Virus record (IMG/VR): IMGVR_UViG_3300031566_000048
Source of the DNA: a virus
Direction: 5' to 3' (one strand)
Length of the DNA stretch: 54,138 nt
Translations under genes and position numbers: made by a program
Notes under the pieces: model-generated
Told to the model about the DNA's origin: nothing
Seen by the model: the letters and a program-made list of their open reading frames with translations, nothing else
Database searches by the model: none
Shown here: positions 3,242 through 54,138 of the stretch, piece after piece
How the letters are laid out: every line of letters begins with the position of its first letter
How positions within the stretch are numbered: the stretch's first letter is position 1

Positions 3242-4435
3242 ATGGATAATGTACCAGTAAAAAGCACAGGAAATCAATTATCTGCTGTTGAGTGGAACTC
3301 TAATCAAACGGAAAATGAAAATATAGTAACTTCAACAGGAGATAGTTTAGGTGGAGATAATTTTCAACTCTCAAGAGCTACTGCAACTTATGCGAGTGGA
3401 GCAGATTATTATACAGAGAGTGGAATAGCAGATGCTTATATTGCTTCACCAGTTGGAAGTAAACTTGCACCTCATACTTATTTTACAGGGATGCGAGTAA
3501 GATTTAGAACTGCCAACGCAAATACGGGAGCAAGTACTATTAATGTAAATTCTTTAGGTGTTAAAAATATCAAAAAAGCAGACGGCTCAAATGACCCCGA
3601 TGCAGATGATATAAATGTAAGAGGTGATACTGTTTTAGTTTATGACGGAGCTAACTTTAGATTGCCATTAAAAGAATTAAATTTACCTACTTTGCATTTA
3701 AGTATTTTTACTGAAAATGATAGTGGTGATTTGCAAAAAGATATTTTATTTAAAGCAGGAAAAGCAAGAGATATATTAGATACTTTTGATATTGTTTTAT
3801 CTGCAAATATGGTTAAACAACTTGATAGCGTATGGGTTGCGGGCACAGGCAACGGAGGCAGAGCAAGCGGAGTTGCATTATCTGCTGATACTACTTATCA
3901 TATGTTTGTAATTTCAAAACCTGATGGCACTACCGATTGCGGATTTGATACTGCTGTAAATGCAACAAATCTTTTAGCCGATGCAACTGGATATACTAAA
4001 TATCGCAGGGTTGGGAGCGGAAAAACTGATGGCAGTTCTAATTGGATTGGATATACACAACTTGGGAATTGGTTTACTTACAAAGTTAGACATATAGATT
4101 TGTCAACAACTACCCCTTCAACAGCTAGGACAGCCCTTCCATTAACTTTGCCTACTGGTTTAAAATTAATGGTTAATGTAAATTTAGGTATAGATGATAG
4201 TGGAAGTTTAACTATTATGGTTTCAAGCGACGGTTATGAAGATTTTGCAGTTTTAGAAATTGGAACATTAGCAGCAACTGCAACTAGAAATATTAAAGCT
4301 TTAGCCACTGGAGACCATAACGAATTGCAATTATTAACTGATACTAGCGGTCAAATTTATTATAGAGCAAGTCAAGCCACTGCAGATGCCTTTGTCATAA
4401 TAACATTGGGATTTTATGACCCATTTATAGCATAG
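3242..4435 (+). CDS. Tail fibre / receptor-binding protein (Mu gp49 position)
   Basis: Position after the gp48-like gene. N-terminus 'STGNQLSAVEWNSNQTENENI' is fibre-like. Gly/Thr/Ala-rich. Confidence 0.55.
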   Translation: MDNVPVKSTGNQLSAVEWNSNQTENENIVTSTGDSLGGDNFQLSRATATYASGADYYTESGIADAYIASPVGSKLAPHTYFTGMRVRFRTANANTGASTINVNSLGVKNIKKADGSNDPDADDINVRGDTVLVYDGANFRLPLKELNLPTLHLSIFTENDSGDLQKDILFKAGKARDILDTFDIVLSANMVKQLDSVWVAGTGNGGRASGVALSADTTYHMFVISKPDGTTDCGFDTAVNATNLLADATGYTKYRRVGSGKTDGSSNWIGYTQLGNWFTYKVRHIDLSTTTPSTARTALPLTLPTGLKLMVNVNLGIDDSGSLTIMVSSDGYEDFAVLEIGTLAATATRNIKALATGDHNELQLLTDTSGQIYYRASQATADAFVIITLGFYDPFIA

Positions 4436-4454
4436 TAAAAGGAGACAAAAAATA

Positions 4455-4730
4455 ATGTATATAACTAGAAATAAAACTACAAAAAAAATGACTGGATTTG
4501 CAAAACGCATTCCAAAAATATTTGATGACAAAAAAGGTAAATATGTGCCTGATAAAAACTATGAAAAGATAGACCAAAAATCAAAAGAGTTACAAGATTT
4601 TTTAAATGGTACTGGCGATTATGAAAAACCTAAAAAACCAAATTATGATATAGAAAAACAGTTTGAAATACTAGAAAATGAAATACCTGCTTTAAAAAAA
4701 TATCGTAAATCGGTAAGGGAGGATAATTAA
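4455..4730 (+). CDS. Hypothetical Lys-rich protein
   Basis: ORF with 'aaaaggagac' RBS. Tightly packed with neighbours. Confidence 0.45.
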   Translation: MYITRNKTTKKMTGFAKRIPKIFDDKKGKYVPDKNYEKIDQKSKELQDFLNGTGDYEKPKKPNYDIEKQFEILENEIPALKKYRKSVREDN

Positions 4731-4732
4731 TT

Positions 4733-5092
4733 ATGGCAACAAGAGATGATAGTAGTTACACACAAGATAGAATTTTTAAATATACTGGAGTTAAAATATT
4801 AAGCGGGCAGACTGAAAGTGAAGCAATAGATTGTCTGGGTGGTGTTTTAGTAGGAATTAAAACTCCGTCTGCTTTAACAGGCACTTCATTTACTGTAAAA
4901 GTATCTGATGACGGGGTTTCTTATGTAGATTATTATAATGCTTTGGGTGCAAAAGTAACTATAACAGCAGGTGTAGATAGGCGTATAGGCATAGAGCCTG
5001 TTGATTTTGCAGGTATACAAAAAATAAAACTTGTTTCAAGTAGTGCAGAAGCAGCAGAAAGAGAACTTACTTTGTTTTTGAGAGGTATGTAA
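4733..5092 (+). CDS. Hypothetical protein in the virion module
   Basis: RBS 'agggaggataat'. Same strand and tightly packed. Confidence 0.5.
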   Translation: MATRDDSSYTQDRIFKYTGVKILSGQTESEAIDCLGGVLVGIKTPSALTGTSFTVKVSDDGVSYVDYYNALGAKVTITAGVDRRIGIEPVDFAGIQKIKLVSSSAEAAERELTLFLRGM

Positions 5093-5093
5093 T

Positions 5094-5459
5094 ATGCCAT
5101 TATTAAATTGTTTATTATGCGGTGGTGGGGATAGACCATTTTCACAGCAAAGTATATCAGGTGCTACCGATACTATTGACCCAACACTTGTAAATATAGA
5201 GTTAGTAGTTTCAAGCCCTACCACAATGACATCTACCCCTACTATTGCAAATGGAATTTATGATAATCAGCAGGTAATTATAAGGGGTAGTAATAACACT
5301 AATACTATTACATTGCAAAGTGTAACTAATTTAGGCGGTAGTAATTTATTTATGGACGGTGGAGTAGATATTGTTTTAGGCGAAAATGATTATATAGTTT
5401 TTCGTTGGAATAATACTACATCTAATTGGTGCGAGCAATCAAGGAGCGTAAATTCTTAA
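5094..5459 (+). CDS. Hypothetical protein in the virion module
   Basis: Starts 1 nt after the previous stop. Ser/Thr/Asn-rich. Confidence 0.5.
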   Translation: MPLLNCLLCGGGDRPFSQQSISGATDTIDPTLVNIELVVSSPTTMTSTPTIANGIYDNQQVIIRGSNNTNTITLQSVTNLGGSNLFMDGGVDIVLGENDYIVFRWNNTTSNWCEQSRSVNS

Positions 5460-5478
5460 TTTTAGGAGATAAAAATAA

Positions 5479-6630
5479 ATGTCTCAATATGATAAAACAA
5501 TGAGTAAATTTAACTCTACTGATACATCGGTAGGGTCTAGTATCGGCACAAAAGATATTAAATCAACAGCAGGATTTAATAATAATGGGTTCGTGCAAGA
5601 CGATTTAGAAGTATGGATTAAAGATGCTTCTGCTGTTAGCGGTTCAAAACTTACAAGAATAAATGATTTAAACTCTGTGTATGAAACTTTAGGAGATGCT
5701 GGAGACCAAATATTATTCGGTTCACCAGTACAATGTTGGGGAATATATAGTTCATTATTAACAGCTAAAAGTAACGAGCAATATATAGGTAAATATTATA
5801 GCTCAAGTTTAGCTGATTTAAAAGAAACTACATATATGAGTGTTGTGGATGAGTTTTTAAATCAAAATAAAACTAATGTATTTGAGGCTTTAGTTTCAAA
5901 TAACATTACAATGAATAAAAAAATAAGACTTGACTGGATGTCAAATACACCAAGTGGAATTTTAGATAAAATACCAGCAACTAATGATGGCGTTAATAGA
6001 TATTGGTGGGCGTTAGAAGTCCCTGTCGGTGGACTTACAACTACTCCAAGACTTATTGATACTGCGTATAGAGGTAGTGGATTATCTAAAATAGAATATA
6101 ATCAACAGGATGTTTATTGGGGTAATGCTAGATTACAAGACCAAAAAAATATTAATACTGATAATATTAGAACTCCCTCAGGTACGCCTGTTGTAAGCAT
6201 TGATATAACATCTACGCAAGTACAATTAGTTTACAATATGAGAAGTGCTTTAAATGATAATGTTGTATTTAGGTGGCAATTACCTGTAGGTATAGATACA
6301 TCAACTCCTATAGATATTGACTTTAGTTACATAGCTAATGCTGCTATAAATACTGCCGATATAAATATTGATATTAAAAAATTAACACAAGGTAGTATCG
6401 TAGGAGCAGGTGAAACATCTGATTTAAATCAAACGGAAAACATAAATATAACTGCAGGAAACACAATAAATTTATGTCATAATTTAGCAACTGATTTTGA
6501 TATATCGGATATGAAACCATTTGATATTTTATCAATTGAAGTAATAAGAACCGATAGTAATGGTGGTAGTTTTTATCCGTTACATTCTTGTATCAAACAT
6601 ACTCTATTTAAAATGGGGAAGTTTAGCTAA
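5479..6630 (+). CDS. Hypothetical large virion-module protein
   Basis: RBS 'taggagat'. 383 aa with no recognisable motif. Confidence 0.55.
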   Translation: MSQYDKTMSKFNSTDTSVGSSIGTKDIKSTAGFNNNGFVQDDLEVWIKDASAVSGSKLTRINDLNSVYETLGDAGDQILFGSPVQCWGIYSSLLTAKSNEQYIGKYYSSSLADLKETTYMSVVDEFLNQNKTNVFEALVSNNITMNKKIRLDWMSNTPSGILDKIPATNDGVNRYWWALEVPVGGLTTTPRLIDTAYRGSGLSKIEYNQQDVYWGNARLQDQKNINTDNIRTPSGTPVVSIDITSTQVQLVYNMRSALNDNVVFRWQLPVGIDTSTPIDIDFSYIANAAINTADINIDIKKLTQGSIVGAGETSDLNQTENINITAGNTINLCHNLATDFDISDMKPFDILSIEVIRTDSNGGSFYPLHSCIKHTLFKMGKFS

Positions 6631-16548: not shown

Positions 16549-17260
16549 CACAAAACTATTTAAAGACAGTTGGTTTTCTAACCTTTCAAAAGATGCAAAA
16601 CTATTATATATCTATTTAATAACAAACTGCGACCACGCAGGAATAATTGATTTTAACGCAAAACTTATAGATTTTGAAACAGAAATCAAGGGTTCAGCAA
16701 GAGTTAGGCAAGAGTTAGGCAAGTGTTTAATACACTTGAGAGATAACTACTTTTTTATAGTAAAATTTCCTAACTATCAATATAAAGACTTTTCAGAGGG
16801 AAACAATAATATAAAAAGTAGTGTAATTAAACGCTTAAATGAGTTTAACTTATTAGATGAAAATTCAAGGGTTAAGCAAGGGTTAGGCAACAGTTCCCCA
16901 ACTGTTATGGATATGGTTAAGGATAAAGAAAAGGATAAGGATAAGATAAAAGATAAAGATAATGTTAATATAAATGTTAAAGCTAAAAGTAACAACTTAT
17001 CTTTTGTTGACGATAAATTTTTACCTACTATTAAAAAATGGCTTGATTATAAAAAATCTAAAAATCAAACATACAAGAACGAACATAGTTTAAAAGCACT
17101 TTATAACAAGATTTTAGAACTTTCGGGCAATAATGCAGATATTGCTGATAAGATAATTAATCAATCTATGGCTAATAATTGGGCGGGACTTTTTGAGCTA
17201 AAAAATGAAAACAAACAAAAAGGAGAAAACGGAAATGACTTTGGAAAACTCCCATATTGA
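16529..17260 (+). CDS. Replisome organiser / replication initiator (phage O/DnaD-like N-terminal region)
   Basis: 'RFIDTKLFKDSWFSNLSKDAKLLYIYLITNCDHAGIIDF' is the typical N-terminus of phage replisome organisers. Contains iterons and is followed by a DnaC-like gene. Confidence 0.65.
   Translation: MAKRFIDTKLFKDSWFSNLSKDAKLLYIYLITNCDHAGIIDFNAKLIDFETEIKGSARVRQELGKCLIHLRDNYFFIVKFPNYQYKDFSEGNNNIKSSVIKRLNEFNLLDENSRVKQGLGNSSPTVMDMVKDKEKDKDKIKDKDNVNINVKAKSNNLSFVDDKFLPTIKKWLDYKKSKNQTYKNEHSLKALYNKILELSGNNADIADKIINQSMANNWAGLFELKNENKQKGENGNDFGKLPY
16687..16730 (+). repeat. Iteron cluster 1: four tandem 11-bp units 'CAAG(G/A)GTTAGG'
   Basis: caagggttcag / caagagttagg / caagagttagg / caagtgtttaa, read directly. 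Confidence 0.7.
16866..16898 (+). repeat. Iteron cluster 2: three tandem 11-bp units
   Basis: caagggttaag / caagggttagg / caacagttccc. Followed by the purine/AT-rich tract 'ggataaagaaaaggataaggataagataaaagataaagataatg'. Confidence 0.65.
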
Positions 17261-17954
17261 AATTGCTGTTAATAAAATGGTTCAAGCTGAATTAGAAAAG
17301 AAAAAAAACAATATTAATAAAATTGAACAAAAAAAAATAAAAGAACCAGTATGGTGTGAAAAATGTGGATTTTCAAAAACAGGCGATATATGTCAAAAAT
17401 GCGTTGAAATTGAAAAAGAGGTACAAGTTATGGCTAATGACAAAAAAAACGCTACAATAGCAAGTTTGGGCGGTTTAAGAGCATATGAGAAGTATACTGT
17501 TAATAATTTTAATGATAAAAATATTTTAAAAGATTGTTTAGGATATCCAAACATAAATATATATATAACTGGGGCAGTTGGAACGGGTAAAACTCATTTA
17601 GGAACAGCATTAATAAGAAAGTGCGAAAATTTTAATCGCTTTAGTAGTATACAAATTTGCCGGGAATTAAGAAAAACCCAAAGTAGTGCTAATCCTGCAC
17701 TATCAGAAGAAAAACTAATTAAAAACTTAAGTGAAATTCCTTTAATGATAGACGATTTCGGTGTTGAAAAAACCACAGAATATACTAAACAGACTTTATA
17801 TGAAATTATTGATAAAAGATATGAGTTAGGAAATGGCGGTTTAATTATAACCAGTAACTTTGAACTTGGAAAAAATAGAATTTCTAGCAGGTTATATGAA
17901 ATGTGTAAAATTATCAAATTAGACGGAAATGATTTTAGGTTAAAAAAACTATGA
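17235..17954 (+). CDS. DnaC/IstB-like AAA+ helicase loader
   Basis: Walker A 'TGAVGTGKTHL' and Walker B 'LMIDDFG'. RBS 'aggag' before the ATG at 17235. The track start at 17205 is also possible. Confidence 0.8.
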   Translation: MTLENSHIEIAVNKMVQAELEKKKNNINKIEQKKIKEPVWCEKCGFSKTGDICQKCVEIEKEVQVMANDKKNATIASLGGLRAYEKYTVNNFNDKNILKDCLGYPNINIYITGAVGTGKTHLGTALIRKCENFNRFSSIQICRELRKTQSSANPALSEEKLIKNLSEIPLMIDDFGVEKTTEYTKQTLYEIIDKRYELGNGGLIITSNFELGKNRISSRLYEMCKIIKLDGNDFRLKKL

Positions 17955-20479
17955 AAGAATACCTAAATAAAGTGCATAATTGCGATTGTTTGGAGCTGTT
18001 AAAAAAGTTGCCTGATAATAGTGTTGATTGTATTGTAACCGACCCACCTTACGAATTAGGATTTATGAATAAAAAATGGGATAGCACAGGCATTTCTTAT
18101 AATGTAGATTTATGGCGTGAATGCTTGCGTGTACTTAAATCAGGCGGTCATTTACTTGCTTTTGGGGGAAGTAGAACATATCATAGAATGGCTTGTGCTA
18201 TAGAAGATGCGGGCTTTGAAATAAGAGACCAAATACAATGGTTGTATGGATGTATAAGTGAGGATACTGAAATATTAACCATTAATGGTTGGAAGCATTA
18301 CTATAAAGACATTGATAAAAATCCCGTATTATGCTATAGTATAAAAGATAATAGTTTTAAATTTGAAATACCAAAAAGAAAATTTTATTATGAAAACAAA
18401 TATCCCGCATACCATATTAAATCAGATTTTACAAACCAAATTGTCTCTACAGGACATAACTGTATTATTGAACGAAACGGAAAAAAAGTATTTAAAAAAG
18501 CCGATGCACTTCAATGCAAAGAGAGCGTACCCTTTTTGGAAAGTTTGCAGGAATTGCCTGAAACCATACCTTTGTTACACAAAGGAACAAGCATTAAGAA
18601 ACAAGACTTGCTCAAAGAATTGTGCAGGAAAACTTGTATCAAAAATAAGACCAAAAAGAAAAATAAAATATTTAGTAGAAAAAATATGTTTAATATGTGG
18701 AACATCATTTTTAGCAAGACGAGACAAAATATCAAAATATTGTTCTTACAAATGCAACGGTATGATAAGAGGACAGGAGTGGAAAAAACACGCACACAAG
18801 GGCAGATTTGCTTGGAGCAAAGAAGCAGAGGAAAGTTGCAAAAAGAAAATGACTGGCTCAAAAAATCCAGCTTGGAAAGGTGGAGTAACTTATTTCAAAA
18901 AAAAAGGCAATTATACTGGCGTAGTTTATGTCAGGTGTCCACAGAAATATTTAAGTATGGCACGCAAAGACGGATATGTTATGCAACACAGATTAATAAT
19001 GGCACAGCATTTGAAAAAAATTTTAAAAAGAACGGAAGTTGTGCATCATATAGACCACAATCCGAGCAACAACAAAATAAACAATCTAATGCTATTTCCA
19101 ACAAACAAAGCACACAAAATATACGAAGGACAAATGCGGAAGTTAAACAAATAAATTATAAAGGTAAAATGTGGTGCATTGAAACTGAAAGTGGCGCATT
19201 TGTTGCTAGGCGTAAGGGAAAAATATTTATTACAGGAAACAGTGGCTTCCCTAAAAGTTTAAATATATCAAAAGCGATAGATAAAAAGTTTGGAGCGAAG
19301 AGGGAAGTTTTTAAAAAATCAGTTTCATATCCTGATAGTGATTGTTGGGGTATATCTAATCCCACAACTGTAAAAAATAATTCAAGTTATATTGTTAATA
19401 CTAATAATATAAATGCTGGTAAGGGAATGAGATATGATAGTAAACCATCAACCCCCGAAGCCAAACAATGGGACGGTTGGGGTTCAGCTCTTAAACCAGC
19501 ACACGAGCCAATATGTATGGCACGAAAACCACTATCAGAAAAAACAATTGCGGATAATGTTTTAAAATATGGCACTGGGGGAATAAATATAGATGCTTGT
19601 CGTATAAATGTTTCAAATGAAGATTTGGAGCAAAATATAAAAAGAAGAGGAACTAAATATTTAAATAAAAAAAGTAGAATAACTGGAAATGAAGTTACTA
19701 ATTTTCCAATAGGTTTATGTAAAACTATATCAAAACAAGGACGCTTTCCCTCAAATGTAATATTATCACATCACAATGAATGTGTGGAAATTGGGGTTAA
19801 AGAGGTTAATGGTATAAGTGGTGGAACAAATAAAACTGGTAATAATTTTATGGGAAAATATAAACAAGGACATAAACCATTTAATTATGCTAAAAACGGC
19901 AAAGAAATAGTATCTCATTACGAATGCCACCCTGATTGCCCTATTGGTATTTTGGATAAGCAGAGTGGGTTAAGACCTAGTAGCGGAAGAATTGGGGAAA
20001 GTGGAAGTGGAATTGGTGCTATTAATGGAATTTATCAAAAAGGTATGGGTGGTAAAAGAATGGATACTTATTTTGACATAGGCACAGCATCCCGCTTTTT
20101 TTATTGTGCTAAAAGTTCACGGGCAGAAAGGAATAAAGGTTGTGAAAATTTGGAAGATAAAAAACAGAGGGCGAATTATAAGGTTAGTGGAGGTCGTTCA
20201 TTTAAAAATGGAGAATGGATAGAAAATAATTCTAAACCAAAATTAAGACAAAATTTTCATCCCTGTGTTAAACCAAAAAAACTAATGCAATATCTTATTA
20301 AACTTATTACACCACCTAACGGAATTGTACTTGATATTTTTTCAGGTTCTGGTAGCACTTTGGTAGCTTGCAAAAGTTTAGGATTTGATTTTATAGGCAT
20401 TGAAAAGGAACAAAAGTATTGCCGTATAGCAGAGGCTCGCATTGCCAAAGAACAGGTACAAGGAAAATTTGATTTATGA
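17951..20479 (+). CDS. DNA methyltransferase (N6_N4_Mtase family, DPPY motif, probably N6-adenine) interrupted by a 330-aa intein
   Basis: 'VTDPPY' and 'GGHLLAFGG'. The conserved 'WLYG/SGFPKS' motif is split by the insert. C-terminal 'FHPCVKPKKLMQYLIKLITPPNGIVLDIFSGSGST' is the AdoMet motif. Confidence 0.9.
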   Translation: MKEYLNKVHNCDCLELLKKLPDNSVDCIVTDPPYELGFMNKKWDSTGISYNVDLWRECLRVLKSGGHLLAFGGSRTYHRMACAIEDAGFEIRDQIQWLYGCISEDTEILTINGWKHYYKDIDKNPVLCYSIKDNSFKFEIPKRKFYYENKYPAYHIKSDFTNQIVSTGHNCIIERNGKKVFKKADALQCKESVPFLESLQELPETIPLLHKGTSIKKQDLLKELCRKTCIKNKTKKKNKIFSRKNMFNMWNIIFSKTRQNIKILFLQMQRYDKRTGVEKTRTQGQICLEQRSRGKLQKENDWLKKSSLERWSNLFQKKRQLYWRSLCQVSTEIFKYGTQRRICYATQINNGTAFEKNFKKNGSCASYRPQSEQQQNKQSNAISNKQSTQNIRRTNAEVKQINYKGKMWCIETESGAFVARRKGKIFITGNSGFPKSLNISKAIDKKFGAKREVFKKSVSYPDSDCWGISNPTTVKNNSSYIVNTNNINAGKGMRYDSKPSTPEAKQWDGWGSALKPAHEPICMARKPLSEKTIADNVLKYGTGGINIDACRINVSNEDLEQNIKRRGTKYLNKKSRITGNEVTNFPIGLCKTISKQGRFPSNVILSHHNECVEIGVKEVNGISGGTNKTGNNFMGKYKQGHKPFNYAKNGKEIVSHYECHPDCPIGILDKQSGLRPSSGRIGESGSGIGAINGIYQKGMGGKRMDTYFDIGTASRFFYCAKSSRAERNKGCENLEDKKQRANYKVSGGRSFKNGEWIENNSKPKLRQNFHPCVKPKKLMQYLIKLITPPNGIVLDIFSGSGSTLVACKSLGFDFIGIEKEQKYCRIAEARIAKEQVQGKFDL
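18251..19240 (+). other. Intein (residues 101-430 of the methyltransferase)
   Basis: Starts with Cys in 'C-ISEDTEILT' and contains 'STGHNCII'. Ends '...MWCIETESGAFVA...KIFITGN' followed by the +1 extein Ser of SGFPKS. Confidence 0.8.
18363..19154 (+). CDS. HNH homing endonuclease encoded in the +1 frame within the intein. Start uncertain: TTG 18363, ATG 18390 or ATG 18504.
   Basis: 'CRNC..CSKNC', 'CLICG...YCSYKCNG', 'KNPAWKGG', 'DGYVMQHRLIMAQHL...VVHHIDHNPSNNKINNLMLFPTNKAH'. Confidence 0.8.
   Translation: MKYQKENFIMKTNIPHTILNQILQTKLSLQDITVLLNETEKKYLKKPMHFNAKRAYPFWKVCRNCLKPYLCYTKEQALRNKTCSKNCAGKLVSKIRPKRKIKYLVEKICLICGTSFLARRDKISKYCSYKCNGMIRGQEWKKHAHKGRFAWSKEAEESCKKKMTGSKNPAWKGGVTYFKKKGNYTGVVYVRCPQKYLSMARKDGYVMQHRLIMAQHLKKILKRTEVVHHIDHNPSNNKINNLMLFPTNKAHKIYEGQMRKLNK
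20458..20479 (+). repeat. 22-bp direct repeat 'acaaggaaaatttgatttatga', copy 1
   Basis: Identical to 20830-20851. Includes the methylase stop and the next ATG. Confidence 0.9.
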
Positions 20480-20820
20480 CTATAGAATTTTTACAAAAAG
20501 TTTTTAGCGAATTTGGTTATAGCAGATGTTTTGATTTGGAGCAAAATCTTAAAAAAAATTCTGCATTTAAAAGTTATGATAAAGTATTTTCATTTTATAA
20601 TAACAAAAAATACACTAATTTTATTATAACTTTTGATAATATAAAACATAAAAATCAGATAGCAATAAGTGTTTCTATATTAAACTACTGTATACATATT
20701 GATGACATAAATAATATTTTTTCAAAACTTTCAAAAAAAATGCGTTCGCCAAATAAAAAACTAATTAGAAATATTTTATATCTTTTTGAAAATATAAAAA
20801 ATATACAATCGCAATTATAA
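20476..20820 (+). CDS. Hypothetical protein, a cassette flanked by the 22-bp repeats
   Basis: ATGA overlap with the methylase stop. Confidence 0.5.
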   Translation: MTIEFLQKVFSEFGYSRCFDLEQNLKKNSAFKSYDKVFSFYNNKKYTNFIITFDNIKHKNQIAISVSILNYCIHIDDINNIFSKLSKKMRSPNKKLIRNILYLFENIKNIQSQL

Positions 20821-51444: not shown

Positions 51445-54138
51445 GTAAATTAGACAATATAATTAAATGGGCTGAAGTTACTTTGCCCGATAATGATAAG
51501 GATAATTTTTCAAGGTCTCAAGTTAAATCTATAGGGCAAAATCCTAAACAAATTACAAATATATTACCTTATGGTTTTATATCAAGAGCACCTGTTGGAA
51601 CAACGGCTCTTTTATTTAATGTTAATGGCAATGAAGAAAAAACTGTTGGTATTCCTATTAGCTCAAATAATAGAAAGAAAGCGGAACTTACAGAGGTTGG
51701 AATTGAAAATCCAGTTTCTAAAAATTATGTTTTATGTAGAGAAACTGGAGTTACTGAATTAAATGGAAGTGATTATGAGGGTATAATAAAAATAGAAGAT
51801 TTGACTGGTAAATTAAATGATTTAATAACCGAATTTGATACTCATACTCATAGCGGAGTTCAAACAGGTGGTGGCGTTAGTGGCGTTCCTGTAACCCCTG
51901 CAACTGCTTTTAATAAATCAGATTATGAAAATGAAAGTGTTAAACACGGATTTACAAGTGTTGCAAGCACACCAAGCGGTAGCGGTAACGGAATTTTAAA
52001 TTTAAATGGATTAACCGCACAAGTTCAATCATTTGCAGTAGGGATAGTAGGAAGTGATTTTAATATTTCAAGTTCGGTAAGTACTCATACCTTTAATTTA
52101 CCGACTGCTAGTGCGGTAAACAGAGGAGCGTTGAGTTCTGCTGACTGGACTACTTTCAATAATAAACTTTCAAATATTAGCGGACAAGACCATAGTACTT
52201 TAATTAATTTAGATTTTGCAAGTGCGGGGCATACTGGATTTGAAAAGGCATTAACTTTTTCTACGGGACTAACCCGCACAGGCGATACAATAACAACAGA
52301 TGACACTCAAATAGTTCATAACAATTTAAGTGGTAAACAAGGTGGAGTAGCAGGACAATATTTTCATTTAACAAACGCACAACATACTATCGCAACACAG
52401 CAGGCTACTACAAGTCAAGACGGCTATTTACTATCAAGCGATTGGAATATTTTTAATAATAAACTATCTGTAGAAACAGACCCTATATTTACCGCATCGC
52501 CTGCATTTGGAATTACAAGCGGAGATATAACAAACTGGGACACTGCATATGGGTGGGGAGACCATTCTACTGAAGGATATTTAAAAAACATAGTAGAAGA
52601 TACAACCCCTCAACTTGGCGGTGATTTAGATACAAACTCAAACGACATTAAATTTTTAGATAATGATAAAGCAATATTTGGAACTGGTTTAGATTTTGAA
52701 ATTTACCACGATGGAAATGATACTATTTTTAGGAATTTACTACAGGATAAGGACACAGTTTTTAATGTTAATTTAGGTGGCGTTGATACGGAAGCGGTGA
52801 GGGTATCAGGTAGTAATGGTTATTTTGGAATAGGAACTTCGGACCCACAACAACAATTACATCTAGCCAAAGAAGGTGCTAATGGTGGTATTTGGTTTCA
52901 AGTTCACAGCAACACAGGCACAAATCACGGTATATTTAATTTTAATAGGGCAAGGGGAACACTAGCATCACCAACAGCAGTACAAAGTGGAGACAATCTA
53001 GGAAGTTTTAGATTTAACGGACACGACGGAACTGCAATAGGGGCAGGTTCTCAAATTATTGGGAGAGCATCAGAAAATTGGTCAGTGGGAAATCACGGGT
53101 CAGATTTAAATTTCTTTACAGTGGCAAATGGGGCTACTACAACAACACAACGAATGATTATAGGAAATGACGGAATTTTAAATTTATTAGAAAATCCTAT
53201 AGATAATGTTGGCAATATAACTCACGATGATGCAACTGCAAGTGATTGGATATTTAGAAATTCAAATTTAGATAAATTTACTAGATTTTTTGGTAATGAC
53301 GGGGGATTAGATACAGAATTATTAACACTTGATTATGCTAACCGTAGTATAGGAATAAATCAGCCAAATCCTACTAAAAAACTGCATATAACTGATGCAG
53401 TTACAGCAAATTCAGTCTGGGAACGAACAGGTGGAACTATATTTACACTCACAGCAGGTTCACTTTATGGATTTATTGGAACACAGACAGATAACCAGTG
53501 TCGCTTATTAGTTAATGATACCCCTGTAATGAGATTAGGAGTTTCAACAAATAATTACAATATCTCTGTGGGTAATTTTGACGCAGATGAAAAATTACAA
53601 GTAGATGGAAATATATCACTAAAAGATGATAACTACAAAGCAATTTTTGGAACAGGCAAAGATGGAGAGATTTTTGTAGATAGTAATGATGACTTTAATA
53701 TTAAAAATGTAACACAAGATAAAGATATTATTTTTAATGTTAATTACAGTGGCGTTGATACTAAAAGATTTCAATTATTTGGAGATGATACTTCTCAAGC
53801 AGTTACTATTTTTGGAAATGGTTTAAAAATACAAGGCGGTGCATTTACTTGGATAGACGAAGCAAGCGGAGCTAATGCGCGAGGTGAAGTATATTCAGAT
53901 AGTGCTACTCAAAACGCAGGTTTTTTATTTATTAAAGGCAGGGGAACAGAGGCTAGCCCAGCTGCAATTCAAAGTGGAGATTTAATTTCTAGACATTCAT
54001 TTTCAGGATACTATGACGGTTCAAACAGATTTACCGCATTACGAACAGAATATGAAGCAACTGAAAACTGGAGTAGTGGAAATAATGGTGCTAGAATGTC
54101 TTTCTTTACTACACAAAATGGAACTAGCATATTAAAAA
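51441..54138 (+). CDS. Mu gp45-like central spike N-terminal domain fused to a long repeat-containing fibre (949 codons in total, continuing at 128..279)
   Basis: ATGA overlap with the upstream gene. 'LPYGFISRAPVGTTALLF...GNEE' and 'DTHTHSG'. No stop before the window end, and in frame with 1..279. Confidence 0.8.
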   Translation, partial: MSKLDNIIKWAEVTLPDNDKDNFSRSQVKSIGQNPKQITNILPYGFISRAPVGTTALLFNVNGNEEKTVGIPISSNNRKKAELTEVGIENPVSKNYVLCRETGVTELNGSDYEGIIKIEDLTGKLNDLITEFDTHTHSGVQTGGGVSGVPVTPATAFNKSDYENESVKHGFTSVASTPSGSGNGILNLNGLTAQVQSFAVGIVGSDFNISSSVSTHTFNLPTASAVNRGALSSADWTTFNNKLSNISGQDHSTLINLDFASAGHTGFEKALTFSTGLTRTGDTITTDDTQIVHNNLSGKQGGVAGQYFHLTNAQHTIATQQATTSQDGYLLSSDWNIFNNKLSVETDPIFTASPAFGITSGDITNWDTAYGWGDHSTEGYLKNIVEDTTPQLGGDLDTNSNDIKFLDNDKAIFGTGLDFEIYHDGNDTIFRNLLQDKDTVFNVNLGGVDTEAVRVSGSNGYFGIGTSDPQQQLHLAKEGANGGIWFQVHSNTGTNHGIFNFNRARGTLASPTAVQSGDNLGSFRFNGHDGTAIGAGSQIIGRASENWSVGNHGSDLNFFTVANGATTTTQRMIIGNDGILNLLENPIDNVGNITHDDATASDWIFRNSNLDKFTRFFGNDGGLDTELLTLDYANRSIGINQPNPTKKLHITDAVTANSVWERTGGTIFTLTAGSLYGFIGTQTDNQCRLLVNDTPVMRLGVSTNNYNISVGNFDADEKLQVDGNISLKDDNYKAIFGTGKDGEIFVDSNDDFNIKNVTQDKDIIFNVNYSGVDTKRFQLFGDDTSQAVTIFGNGLKIQGGAFTWIDEASGANARGEVYSDSATQNAGFLFIKGRGTEASPAAIQSGDLISRHSFSGYYDGSNRFTALRTEYEATENWSSGNNGARMSFFTTQNGTSILK
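54012..54138. repeat. Terminal overlap, identical to 1..127
   Basis: Direct reading. Confidence 0.95.

Follow-up and report, generated by a model that had tools for sequence, protein, structure and literature searches.

Organization of the methylase locus

The window analyzed here is a 54,138-nucleotide stretch of viral DNA, and all features described below lie on its plus strand. Positions 17951–20479 form one ORF of 842 aa (frame 0), which encodes a β-class N6/N4 DNA methyltransferase interrupted by a putative intein. Pfam reported an N6_N4_Mtase match to this ORF (2.8e-33) that was split over residues 25–828, and the AF2 model of the precursor retrieved CcrM, M.BceJIV, M.MboIIA and M1.HpyAVI in Foldseek searches (E = 2.6e-5 to 1e-3). 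A second ORF, with a maximal length of 263 aa, runs in the +1 frame from a TTG at 18363 to a TAA at 19152–19154 (18363–19154). Over positions 17951–20479 the +1 frame contains 38 stop codons, with zero between 18342 and 19152, and frame +2 contains 28 within 18363–19154. The initial annotation had described these two ORFs and read the +1 product as an HNH endonuclease; both ORFs are present at those positions, and the +1 product matched Pfam family HNH_3 (PF13392; 1e-7, 31.9 bits versus a cutoff of 24.8). An Rfam search of positions 17800–20600 (E ≤ 1) returned zero matches; given this result and the selection that keeps frame 0 open (see below), a group I intron carrying the HNH ORF was rejected. 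A fractured gene with a split intein was also rejected for the window, where one 842-aa ORF is found with no frame-0 stop.

The likeliest coding sequence of the endonuclease (18390–19154) starts at ATG 18390 and specifies 254 aa, comprising a two-helix segment at the N-terminus, a pair of Cys4 zinc fingers, an NPAWKGG motif and an HNH core. Finger 1 (C53, C56, C74 and C78; 18546–18623) gave YacG-like zinc-ribbon matches in Foldseek and is followed by finger 2 (C100, C103, C118 and C122; 18687–18755). The catalytic core (…EVVHHIDHNPSNNKINNLMLFPTN…; 18987–19106) corresponds to residues 209–248 of the 263-aa ORF. All eight finger cysteines, as well as H219, H220, H223, N232, N239 and H242, were invariant among 74 homologues. 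The AF2 model of the 254-aa protein had a mean pLDDT of 91, with residues 1–47 at 96–98. Its best Foldseek match in the PDB was I-HmuI (1u3e), a weak one (E = 0.62 over 77 columns), and a sequence-profile search of the PDB retrieved zinc fingers and nothing else.

The boundaries of the intein were taken from an empty site in Bacillus phage BSP18, whose methylase is uninterrupted and contiguous across YG-S-GFPKS; residue 100 of the window protein aligns with residue 106 of BSP18, and residue 432 with residue 108. YGSGFPKS is also uninterrupted in two further relatives, L004 and L007. On this basis, the N-extein (residues 1–100; 17951–18250) ends in ...QIQWLYG and is 78% identical to BSP18 residues 11–106, the intein comprises 330 aa from Cys101 to Asn430 in frame 0 (18251–19240), and the C-extein (SGFPKSLNISKAIDK…; 19241–20476) begins at Ser431 and aligns with BSP18 residues 108–402. 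The intein ends, YG|CLSEDTEILT and TGN|SGFPKS, were kept in 53 of 57 homologues, and C101, H169, N430 and S431 were invariant in 51 precursors.

From the frame-0 alignment, pLDDT and wobble variability, the Hint N-terminal splicing subdomain was placed at 18251–18570. It includes block A (CISEDTEILT), whose nucleophile Cys101 (18251–18253) directly follows YG, and block B (...QIVSTGHNC versus the consensus DQIVSRNHRC), whose histidine is H169, and it ends at about VPFLESLQELP. The Hint C-terminal subdomain (…MWCIETESGAFVARRKGKIFITGN; 19118–19240) had pLDDT values of 87–90, was conserved in 53 of 57 homologues and terminates in an Asn at 19238–19240. In inteins the residue before this Asn is usually His; here the junction TGN|S is invariant, and Gly stands in for His throughout the family. 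The Hint parts of the AF2 model (residues 101–230 and 390–430) had pLDDT values of 72–92, and their Foldseek matches included the split intein 6zgq (E = 3.6e-4, TMt 0.60), 9hth, the DnaX mini-intein 7cfv and 6rpq. Pfam (E ≤ 1) listed only methyltransferase families for the 842-aa protein, with no Hint or intein family, and the case for an intein therefore depends on its motifs, on the empty site and on its predicted fold. With blocks A, B and G and the +1 Ser conserved or invariant, the element looks like an intact intein of class-1 type, which would be expected to splice.

Between the two subdomains lies a linker in frame 0 (residues 237–389; 18659–19117), which is 28% identical in pairwise comparisons of homologues, had pLDDT values below 50 throughout and is rich in K, Q, R, N and S, with 69% polar or charged residues. 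This 'shadow' linker occupies the place where an in-frame endonuclease domain would be expected.

Stop avoidance and purifying selection in the overlap

We calculated how often frame 0 would stay open with the HNH protein fixed and its synonymous codons drawn from the codon usage of the window, using exact dynamic programming. Under this null model 26.7–30.8 stops were expected in frame 0 and 0 were observed, with a probability of an open frame between 1.9e-19 and 1.5e-22; when the HNH gene's own codon usage was used as a conservative null, the probability was 3.9e-9. In the equivalent frame, each of 59 control windows of 210 codons from other genes contained at least 13 stops. Mononucleotide-shuffled sequences averaged 16.8 stops, with a lowest count of 4. 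The initial annotation had judged the stop-free double frame very unlikely to arise by chance and had named an open frame expected from composition alone as a possible refutation; these values bear out the former, and composition fails to account for the open frame.

The codons of the HNH gene reveal how the frame is kept open. All 23 NNY codons that precede AA-, AG- or GA-starting codons end in C and none in T, compared with 45 T and 11 C among NNY codons elsewhere in the gene (Fisher's exact test, 6e-12). In this dangerous context, NNY codons of control genes end in T 1230 times and in C 258 times. The gene avoids xxT-AA, xxT-AG and xxT-GA junctions because the frame-0 stop that they create would kill the methylase. 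The region is dual coding, with stop avoidance at the level of single codons.

The same arrangement was found in relatives. Viral contigs and genomes yielded 94 distinct HNH homologues. The methylase frame was open at 91 of these loci, and the third frame, with 2–28 stops per locus, at 0. GC content ranged from 30 to 64% in the 57 intein-class loci and reached ~71% in intein-less loci. None of 125 representative precursors contained an in-frame HNH motif; 10 carried mini-inteins of 141–164 aa, and three were intermediates with linker remnants. The proposal that an HNH gene is overprinted in the +1 frame, with selection keeping the methylase and intein frame translatable, is upheld by this comparison with homologous inteins and by the stop avoidance, and the frame-0 stops that might have been expected in close relatives of a fractured gene were not the rule.

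These data also bear on whether the locus is an ordinary in-frame HNH intein misassembled through two compensating homopolymer indels near 18480–18540 and 19130–19160. A-runs do occur at 18481–18487 and 18494–18499. However, an artefact would leave the open frame 0 to chance (P ~1e-19, and 4e-9 with the most conservative null), and indels cannot produce the choice of C over T at every dangerous junction. Moreover, the out-of-frame layout recurs in 91 of 94 independent loci, among them GC-rich ones that lack A-runs and one on a finished Azotobacter vinelandii chromosome, whereas the in-frame version was found in none of the representative precursors. Misassembly, which had been named as a route to refutation, would require a 1e-19 coincidence in ~90 independent assemblies; we regard the indel artefact as effectively refuted and its chance as negligible.

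In the overlap, pairwise nucleotide differences among 57 homologues were 0.39, 0.34 and 0.60 at HNH codon positions 1, 2 and 3, and pairwise amino-acid identity was 53% in the HNH frame versus 28% in frame 0. The HNH frame is the selected frame there and evolves under purifying selection. Wobble periodicity in 54 homologues passed from frame 0, whose wobble position was the most variable as far as ~18500, to the HNH frame at ~18500–18515 and returned at ~19125–19150, close to the switches at ~18520 and ~19165 given in the initial annotation. We then considered synonymous sites, computing normalized synonymous entropy for those frame-0 codons at which amino-acid conservation reaches 70% or more. 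Entropy was 0.49 at 18390–18500 (n = 23) and 0.15 at 18501–18570 (n = 6), compared with 0.92 beyond the overlap (n = 71; Mann–Whitney, P = 4e-10), and it fell from 0.87 at 18389 to 0.22 at 18404. Both frames thus appear, from frame-0 synonymous entropy, to be under purifying selection at 18404–18570, which encodes the Hint N-terminal subdomain in frame 0 and the HNH N-terminus and the start of finger 1 in frame +1.

This pattern is difficult to reconcile with a fossil, that is, an in-frame HNH intein that underwent two real compensating frameshifts and now persists as a mini-intein with a junk linker and a recently dead HNH. The family does include mini-inteins and partly deleted copies, and at three loci the HNH frame is interrupted by a stop. 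However, the codon-position signature persists in homologues that have diverged to ~53% identity, the catalytic and zinc-binding residues are invariant, and a relic should gather stops at the rate of the third frame. We therefore consider a fossil highly improbable.

Expression of the endonuclease and alleles of the element

No Shine-Dalgarno sequence was found before 18363, 18390 or 18504, as had been remarked of these candidate starts, and about two thirds of the phage's genes have one. By eye, an ATG occupies the aligned 18390 position in ~33 of 57 homologues, often 1–5 codons past an in-frame stop; it is missing in ~18 of 57, where other ATG, GTG or TTG codons lie upstream. Database homologues are 260–300 aa long and cover 96–99% of the 254-aa query. 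Because frame-0 synonymous sites are frozen from ~18400, the HNH protein is presumably translated independently from ATG 18390 or upstream, and ATG 18390 is the most likely start.

Alternatively, the HNH frame could be entered from the intein frame by a ribosomal or transcriptional shift, either as a +1 shift yielding an N-extein/N-Hint/HNH fusion that ends at 19154, or in and out again, yielding an in-frame HNH intein. The lack of Shine-Dalgarno sequences at all candidate starts, the conservation of the start codon in only part of the homologues, the HNH frame that in many homologues is open far upstream into the Hint N-domain and the A7 run at 18481–18487 would fit such a shift. However, no slippery run is conserved, as judged by inspecting GC-rich relatives, which lack the A-run at that position; constraint on the HNH frame also begins at ~18400, upstream of the run. 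In L042, L049, L018, L024 and L047 an in-frame stop lies 1–5 codons before the ATG, which leaves hardly any space for a shift site, and intein-less relatives have a clear ATG immediately past an HNH-frame stop. Furthermore, the in-and-out version needs no open frame 0 and so leaves it unexplained. A programmed frame change, raised by the initial annotation as the alternative to overprinting, is accordingly not supported, and we consider frameshifting unlikely.

The HNH lineage always accompanies this methylase family, in four layouts: downstream, antisense, overprinted on a permissive surface loop and overprinted on an intein. In intein-less relatives (L004, L006, L007, L098–L105 and others) the gene lies in frame +1 and replaces the loop between GFPKS and ALKPA. 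In the free-standing relative L066, with 60% identity in the core, 16 stops interrupt the equivalent frame, and the methylase is divided into two ORFs with the HNH gene antisense between the halves. In L100, where the HNH gene lies directly downstream of the methylase, the equivalent frame has 2 stops. Both free-standing relatives behave as natural controls should.

This constant association, and a similar idea raised by Arsenault et al., would suit a reading in which the HNH protein is a functional partner of the methylase, in a restriction-modification-like or exclusion module, and is nested by happenstance. However, a nuclease within an intein at a conserved motif is a hallmark of homing elements, its core belongs to HNH_3, and its best structural match, though weak, is the homing endonuclease I-HmuI. 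Alleles at the same site were empty, full, partly deleted or reduced to a mini-intein; empty, mini-intein and decayed relatives are expected for a homing element, and here they occur while the methylase persists. Such frequent loss would not be expected of a nuclease that the phage requires, and we consider a partner role quite improbable.

Taken together, we think it likely that at this locus the homing endonuclease of a class-1-like intein is not an in-frame domain but a separate gene nested in the +1 frame. Ribosomes on the methylase mRNA would stay in frame 0 all along the endonuclease gene, and protein splicing would excise the intein and linker to leave a scarless methylase. The 254-aa HNH protein, with its two-helix N-terminus, two Cys4 fingers and I-HmuI-type core, would be produced separately, probably at a low level and most plausibly by internal initiation at ATG 18390. 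It may cleave methylase alleles that lack the intein, near the sequence coding for YG|SGFPKS, and repair of the cut allele would copy the intein and the endonuclease gene into place (homing).

Related systems and evolutionary implications

The initial annotation had set this arrangement apart from known ones; however, out-of-frame intein endonucleases and a hidden out-of-frame HNH in methylases were published in 2025–26. An out-of-frame endonuclease within an intein is a kind first described in those years by one laboratory, and in a limited literature search a family with an HNH gene in a methylase intein was found in none of its three 2025–26 papers. As in such elements, the endonuclease gene lies between the splicing subdomains, on the same strand and in another frame; the intein frame is stop-free, the endonuclease frame is under purifying selection and the linker is predicted to be unstructured.

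As far as the available portions of the 2025 account describe them, actinophage inteins carry an EndoVII-like nuclease in 'frame 3' and occur in DNA polymerase, minor capsid, terminase and thymidylate synthase genes; a methylase is not among these four host genes in those portions. By that account they share with the window splicing domains in the extein frame, a same-strand endonuclease ORF in another frame within the linker, an extein frame without stops and an in-frame linker without recognizable structure. In contrast to what is described there, the window has a zinc-finger HNH_3 nuclease in frame +1 of an N6/N4 methylase intein, its phage is AT-rich and uses Shine-Dalgarno sites, and its relatives extend across many phyla. 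In the cyanobacterial dnaX intein, an out-of-frame LAGLIDADG nuclease occupies a +2 ORF, and a mini-intein is proposed there to have undergone secondary invasion (Phillips, DeSimone & Gogarten, bioRxiv 10.64898/2026.09.14.751524). The two systems have in common a wide distribution, a predicted disordered linker, frame-dependent selection and the co-occurrence of full, mini and empty alleles; they differ in nuclease, frame, host gene and host, the dnaX intein being found in cellular cyanobacteria, and Shine-Dalgarno motifs are reported upstream of the dnaX ORF, whereas none was seen for the window HNH.

The ShiLan domain, known from N6/N4 methylases of mycobacteriophages, is a hidden HNH encoded out of frame (Arsenault, Gosselin & Gogarten, Genes 2025, PMC11855218). 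It resembles the window in its methylase family (YGSGFPKS…ALKP.HEP), its overprinted zinc-finger HNH and its open methylase frame, and its HNH is a distant homologue of ours (29% identity, E = 1e-8 in tblastn; 36% in the core). However, it is not enclosed by an intein, it is inserted after …EPVVVARKP instead of at YG|S, and it lies in frame +2, the 'third frame' (in phage Mantra, which we checked, the methylase frame is H+1), whereas the window HNH lies in +1; ShiLan genomes are also GC-rich, which makes an open frame less surprising. Assignment of the window HNH to the ShiLan type was rejected, since it lies inside an intein, in frame +1 and at the YG|S site. The intein-less relatives described above constitute a third variant beside the ShiLan and intein forms.

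Homing endonuclease genes may also split their host gene, as mobE does in nrdA of Aeh1. In fractured genes, a free-standing endonuclease gene lies between split-intein halves (Dassa et al. 2009, PMC2677866). The window likewise has an endonuclease gene of free-standing type lodged in a host gene, and its relative L066 splits the methylase; however, the host ORF is continuous in the window, and trans-splicing or subunit assembly is therefore unnecessary. In canonical HNH inteins the nuclease is an in-frame domain of the intein polypeptide (Dalgaard et al. 1997, as cited in the 2025 account). An intein with an HNH nuclease as its mobility function is common to both, whereas in the window the nuclease would be a separate translation product.

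More tentatively, one HNH lineage may have shifted repeatedly among four lifestyles with one methylase family, a reading that we hold to be possible without considering it the probable one. If it is true, the stop-free alternative frame would be a 'read-through' adaptation of the endonuclease gene, both evolved and portable, and bifunctional inteins would have been assembled from a mini-intein and a free-standing endonuclease gene, with the intein forms representing living intermediates in this assembly. Because no in-frame version was found among the 125 precursors, the overprinted intein forms would then represent an end state that is stable. Under the same reading, positions ~18404–18570 would simultaneously encode two structured and selected polypeptides.

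Two overlapping reading frames in a phage methylase gene

The window is a phage genome, circularly permuted and about 54.0 kb long, whose ends overlap by 127 nt (positions 1–127 and 54012–54138; the first 25-mer is found again at 54012). It seems to represent a myovirus-like phage of about 54,011 bp, assembled completely and as a circle, and among its products are terminase, portal, tail sheath, tape measure and baseplate proteins. In its replication module, directly after a DnaC-like loader gene, lies the methylase precursor ORF (17951–20479, plus strand, 842 aa, frame 0), inside which an HNH endonuclease ORF is nested on the same strand (18363–19154, 263 aa, frame +1). Pfam detected N6_N4_Mtase in the former (2.8e-33, the match being split over residues 25–828) and HNH_3 in the latter (1e-7, exceeding the curated cutoff). 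The third frame contains 28 stops across the 792 nt of 18363–19154, and frame +1 contains 38 stops over the methylase gene and none within 18342–19152. An antisense ORF of 116 aa (18511–18861, minus strand) also lies inside the overlap region and is probably a by-product of the plus strand being T-poor.

The initial annotation considered an open frame 0 over a +1-frame HNH gene unlikely by chance and suggested a codon-shuffling simulation to check it; an exact calculation bore this out. Keeping the HNH amino acid sequence constant and weighting synonymous codons by their usage in 28 other coding segments of the window, we obtained the exact probability by dynamic programming; 26.7–30.8 frame-0 stops were expected and none was observed (P from 1.9e-19 to 1.5e-22, according to which start is taken). 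When the HNH gene's own codon usage was used as the null, P was still 3.9e-9. In 59 control windows of 210 codons from other genes, the equivalent frame contained 29 stops on average, with a minimum of 13. A frame-0 stop can arise solely at a T-ending HNH codon that precedes a codon beginning with AA, AG or GA. At these dangerous junctions, NNY codons were C-ending in 23 cases and T-ending in none, compared with 45 T-ending and 11 C-ending codons in the rest of the HNH gene (Fisher test, 6e-12). The same junctions in control genes showed 1230 T and 258 C, and there is therefore no general avoidance of T at such sites. Two compensating sequencing indels, which could also place the HNH sequence out of frame, are unable to produce this C-for-T pattern. 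The double open frame is thus neither chance nor artefact.

The intein and the nested endonuclease

We delimited the insertion by comparison with the intein-less methylase of Bacillus phage BSP18, which runs unbroken across the insertion site. Window residues 1–100 align with BSP18 residues 11–106 (78% identity) and residues from 432 onward align with BSP18 residues from 108 onward; the intein therefore comprises residues 101–430 (nt 18251–19240). Both of its frame-0 ends are conserved (YG/CLSEDTEILT … DQIVSRNHRC.VE … VP.LESL at the N-terminal end and VWCV.VPTGAFVARRNGK.F.TGN/SGFPKS at the C-terminal end, slashes marking the intein boundaries), with C101, H169, N430 and S431 invariant. In the AlphaFold2 model of the precursor, pLDDT was 72–92 in the Hint N-subdomain, 87–90 in the C-subdomain and below 50 in residues 237–389, which are the frame-0 shadow of the HNH gene, that is, the peptide read in frame 0 from the same DNA; 69% of the shadow is polar or charged. 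Pfam did not flag a Hint family in the frame-0 protein; Foldseek matched the precursor model to beta-class methyltransferases and to the inteins 6zgq (E = 3.6e-4), 9hth, 7cfv and 6rpq. Relative to the BSP18 methylase, the C-extein carries two extra insertions (19775–20020 and 20135–20260, approximately residues 610–690 and 730–770), both with pLDDT below 50, and the ORF list contains no plus-strand alternative-frame ORF of at least 40 aa in either.

The Hint N-domain matched only one fragment in an index of 5.8 billion proteins, a result superseded by an exhaustive phmmer search that retrieved 681 representative proteins at E <= 1e-3. The shadow peptide (18521–19153) had no match in the same index, which needs shared 5-mers, the peptide being of low complexity. 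Among 125 representative proteins holding both intein ends, about 92 contained inteins of 315–357 aa, about 19 contained inteins of 269–301 aa, 10 contained mini-inteins of 141–164 aa (the N-domain of one such precursor, P0125, is 66% identical to that of the window) and 3 were intermediates keeping remnants of the C-terminal end of the shadow; none had an in-frame HNH motif. The HNH frame carries a stop in three loci. An intron explanation was dropped on the basis of Rfam searches, which found no match at E <= 1 in 17800–20600 and, in three non-overprinted loci, nothing but a single implausible sub-threshold microRNA match (in locus L107).

The protein database contains 583 homologues of the HNH protein, mostly of 260–300 aa with PF13392, many of them from contigs of ~1 kb in which the methylase ORF is cut off. 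An alignment of 74 sequences shows no variation in the His/Asn/His residues, the NPAWKGG motif or the eight Cys that make up the two Cys4 fingers. The AlphaFold2 model of the HNH protein has a mean pLDDT of 91, with two helices in residues 7–33; among PDB structures it most resembles the homing endonuclease I-HmuI, although this match is weak (E = 0.62), with YacG zinc ribbons next, and a PDB profile search with the HNH alignment returned generic zinc fingers only (E >= 0.08).

Selection on the two frames and the probable start of the nested gene

To determine which frame selection follows, we compared homologues in codon alignment. Pairwise nucleotide differences among 57 homologues were 0.39, 0.34 and 0.60 at the three HNH codon positions, and amino acid identity was 53% in the HNH frame compared with 28% in frame 0. 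A sliding wobble analysis of 54 homologues placed the greatest variability at the frame-0 wobble as far as about 18500, at the HNH wobble from 18501 to about 19136, and at the frame-0 wobble once more from about 19125–19150 on. These switches, near 18500 and 19125–19150, agree well with the frame-switch positions estimated in the initial annotation. Outside the overlap, synonymous variation at conserved frame-0 codons is nearly saturated (normalised entropy 0.92, n = 71), compared with 0.49 in 18390–18500 (n = 23; Mann–Whitney test, 4e-10) and 0.15 in 18501–18570. Since entropy drops between 18389 (0.87) and 18404 (0.22), constraint on the HNH frame sets in at about 18400; accordingly, about 18404–18570 is constrained in both frames. 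Further upstream, the conserved frame-0 codons Tyr 18299 and Lys 18305 (18299–18307) also show low synonymous variation (0.39 and 0.17, compared with about 0.92), possibly reflecting an HNH-expression signal or an upstream start in some relatives.

Because of this constraint, ATG 18390 (or TTG 18363) is favoured as the HNH start over ATG 18504, about 100 nt upstream of which the constraint already begins. About 33 of the 57 homologues, as counted by eye, have an ATG at the 18390 position. Most genes of the phage carry AGGAG-type sites, and no Shine–Dalgarno sequence precedes any of the three candidate starts. A scan for promoter-like sequences gave 19 sites, a count not above the shuffled expectation of 18.7. 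The two best plus-strand sigma-70-like matches in 17000–20800 (18312–18340 and 18363–18391; each agreeing at 10 of 12 positions, and one of them having an extended TG) adjoin the HNH ORF upstream; in AT-rich DNA such matches are no evidence of a promoter, and we regard them only as a lead to an internal transcript.

We infer splicing, cleavage and homing for the element of the window. Ribosomes would pass the nested gene in frame 0 and so produce a disordered linker where inteins tolerate insertions, splicing would remove the intein together with the linker, and the HNH protein would be translated separately and promote homing into empty alleles.

Distribution, alternative layouts and published counterparts

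Back-translated pattern scans, run with the HNH protein and afterwards with an alignment of six sequences, detected 264 relatives in viral contigs, of which 80 were taken in, and 21 in GTDB genomes; one further relative is in an uncultured 484-kb phage (L110, LR756508.1). A comparison of homologues, also suggested in the initial annotation, upheld the layout: of 94 distinct HNH matches, 91 have no stop in the frame equivalent to frame 0, and none is free of stops in the other frame. At all 91 loci the stop-free frame forms a long ORF, whose length, where the contig covers it, is several hundred to about 1,190 aa and which nearly always carries the DPPY methylase motif. The 57 unique intein-class loci have GC contents of 30–64%, and the median per-locus P under the own-codon-usage null was 10^-4.6, or 10^-9.6 when only loci with less than 40% GC are counted; codon-level evidence for openness of the host frame is strongest in the window because its genome is AT-rich. 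The layout also occurs in a cultured bacterium, in a prophage of the finished Azotobacter vinelandii chromosome (CP092752.2, 4117898–4126827; positions 3466–6048 of locus L112). There the public annotation lacks the 860-aa open frame and calls in its place a 309-aa 'HNH endonuclease' and a methylase fragment of 402 aa. In some JGI records, HNH homologues bear the name 'endogenous inhibitor of DNA gyrase (YacG/DUF329)' on account of their zinc fingers. Two places in LR756508.1 resemble the window methylase; L110 (297419–304081) contains an intein with an out-of-frame HNH, and the other place (284563–285917), in which 414 bases of the query are spread over 1355 nt, possibly contains a different insertion. 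Among isolated phages, searches at the DNA level brought up no close relative for the gene as a whole.

The HNH lineage also occurs in other layouts. At sixteen intein-less loci, among them the loop-class loci L004, L006, L007, L063, L081, L083–L085, L098, L099 and L102–L105, HNH is overprinted in frame +1 on a variable methylase loop between GFPKS and ALKPA.EP, which spans about 3 to about 75 residues in other homologues. In L066 (1868–4006; IMGVR_UViG_3300020603_000329), the methylase is divided into two half-ORFs (N half 3614–4006, C half 1868–2932, both minus strand) at the same YG/SGFPKS region, and an HNH gene on the opposite strand separates them; its HNH is 48.5% identical to that of the window (60% in the core), and its equivalent frame contains 16 stops, so that this locus serves as a natural control. 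L066 may be a case of gene splitting or else harbour an intron that has gone unrecognised; Rfam finds nothing there. In L100 (1661–3711; Curtobacterium pusillum plasmid pCPAA3, CP018784.1), a free-standing HNH homologue lies directly downstream of an uninterrupted 378-aa methylase lacking both intein and variable loop, possibly an ancestral or 'collaborative' arrangement. Median core identity to the window's HNH is 0.585 in the intein class and 0.575 in the loop class, and neighbour joining on the 100-aa HNH core intermixes the two classes; this core is too short for the direction of transitions to be read from the tree.

The initial annotation assumed that no such arrangement was known; this does not hold, as three recent papers from one laboratory describe such elements. 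According to their accessible text, these are the ShiLan domain, an HNH concealed in frame +2 of mycobacteriophage methylases that lack an intein (PMC11855218); nucleases of actinophage inteins, either EndoVII-like and out of frame or antisense (bioRxiv 10.1101/2025.01.02.630785); and a +2-frame LAGLIDADG nuclease in a cyanobacterial dnaX intein (bioRxiv 10.64898/2026.09.14.751524). We confirmed the ShiLan frame and site directly in phage Mantra. The ShiLan HNH is a distant homologue of the window's (29% identity by tblastn, 36% in the core), and our loop-class relatives differ from the ShiLan domain in both site and frame. Within a limited literature search, the accessible text of the three papers describes no HNH nested in a methylase intein, no +1-frame loop variant and no metagenome-wide family of such size. 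The finding is therefore not a new category, yet it is well supported and exceeds the published examples in size.

Until now this class of elements has comprised a few cases in actinophages and a single cyanobacterial intein. These results add to it a large, ancient and phylogenetically broad family, with 583 homologues of the HNH protein, 681 representative clusters that bear the intein and about 90 loci that have been sequenced, and give quantitative support for codon-level selection that keeps the host frame open. In practice, gene callers and curators split or miss such genes, as with the Azotobacter vinelandii precursor recorded as an HNH gene and a methylase fragment, and such inteins are readily misread as degenerate. 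The family provides a natural series of empty site, mini-intein, intein carrying the endonuclease gene nested inside it, and decayed copies, rounded off by the loop-overprinted, gene-splitting and free-standing relatives, which bears on the old question of how inteins gained endonucleases.
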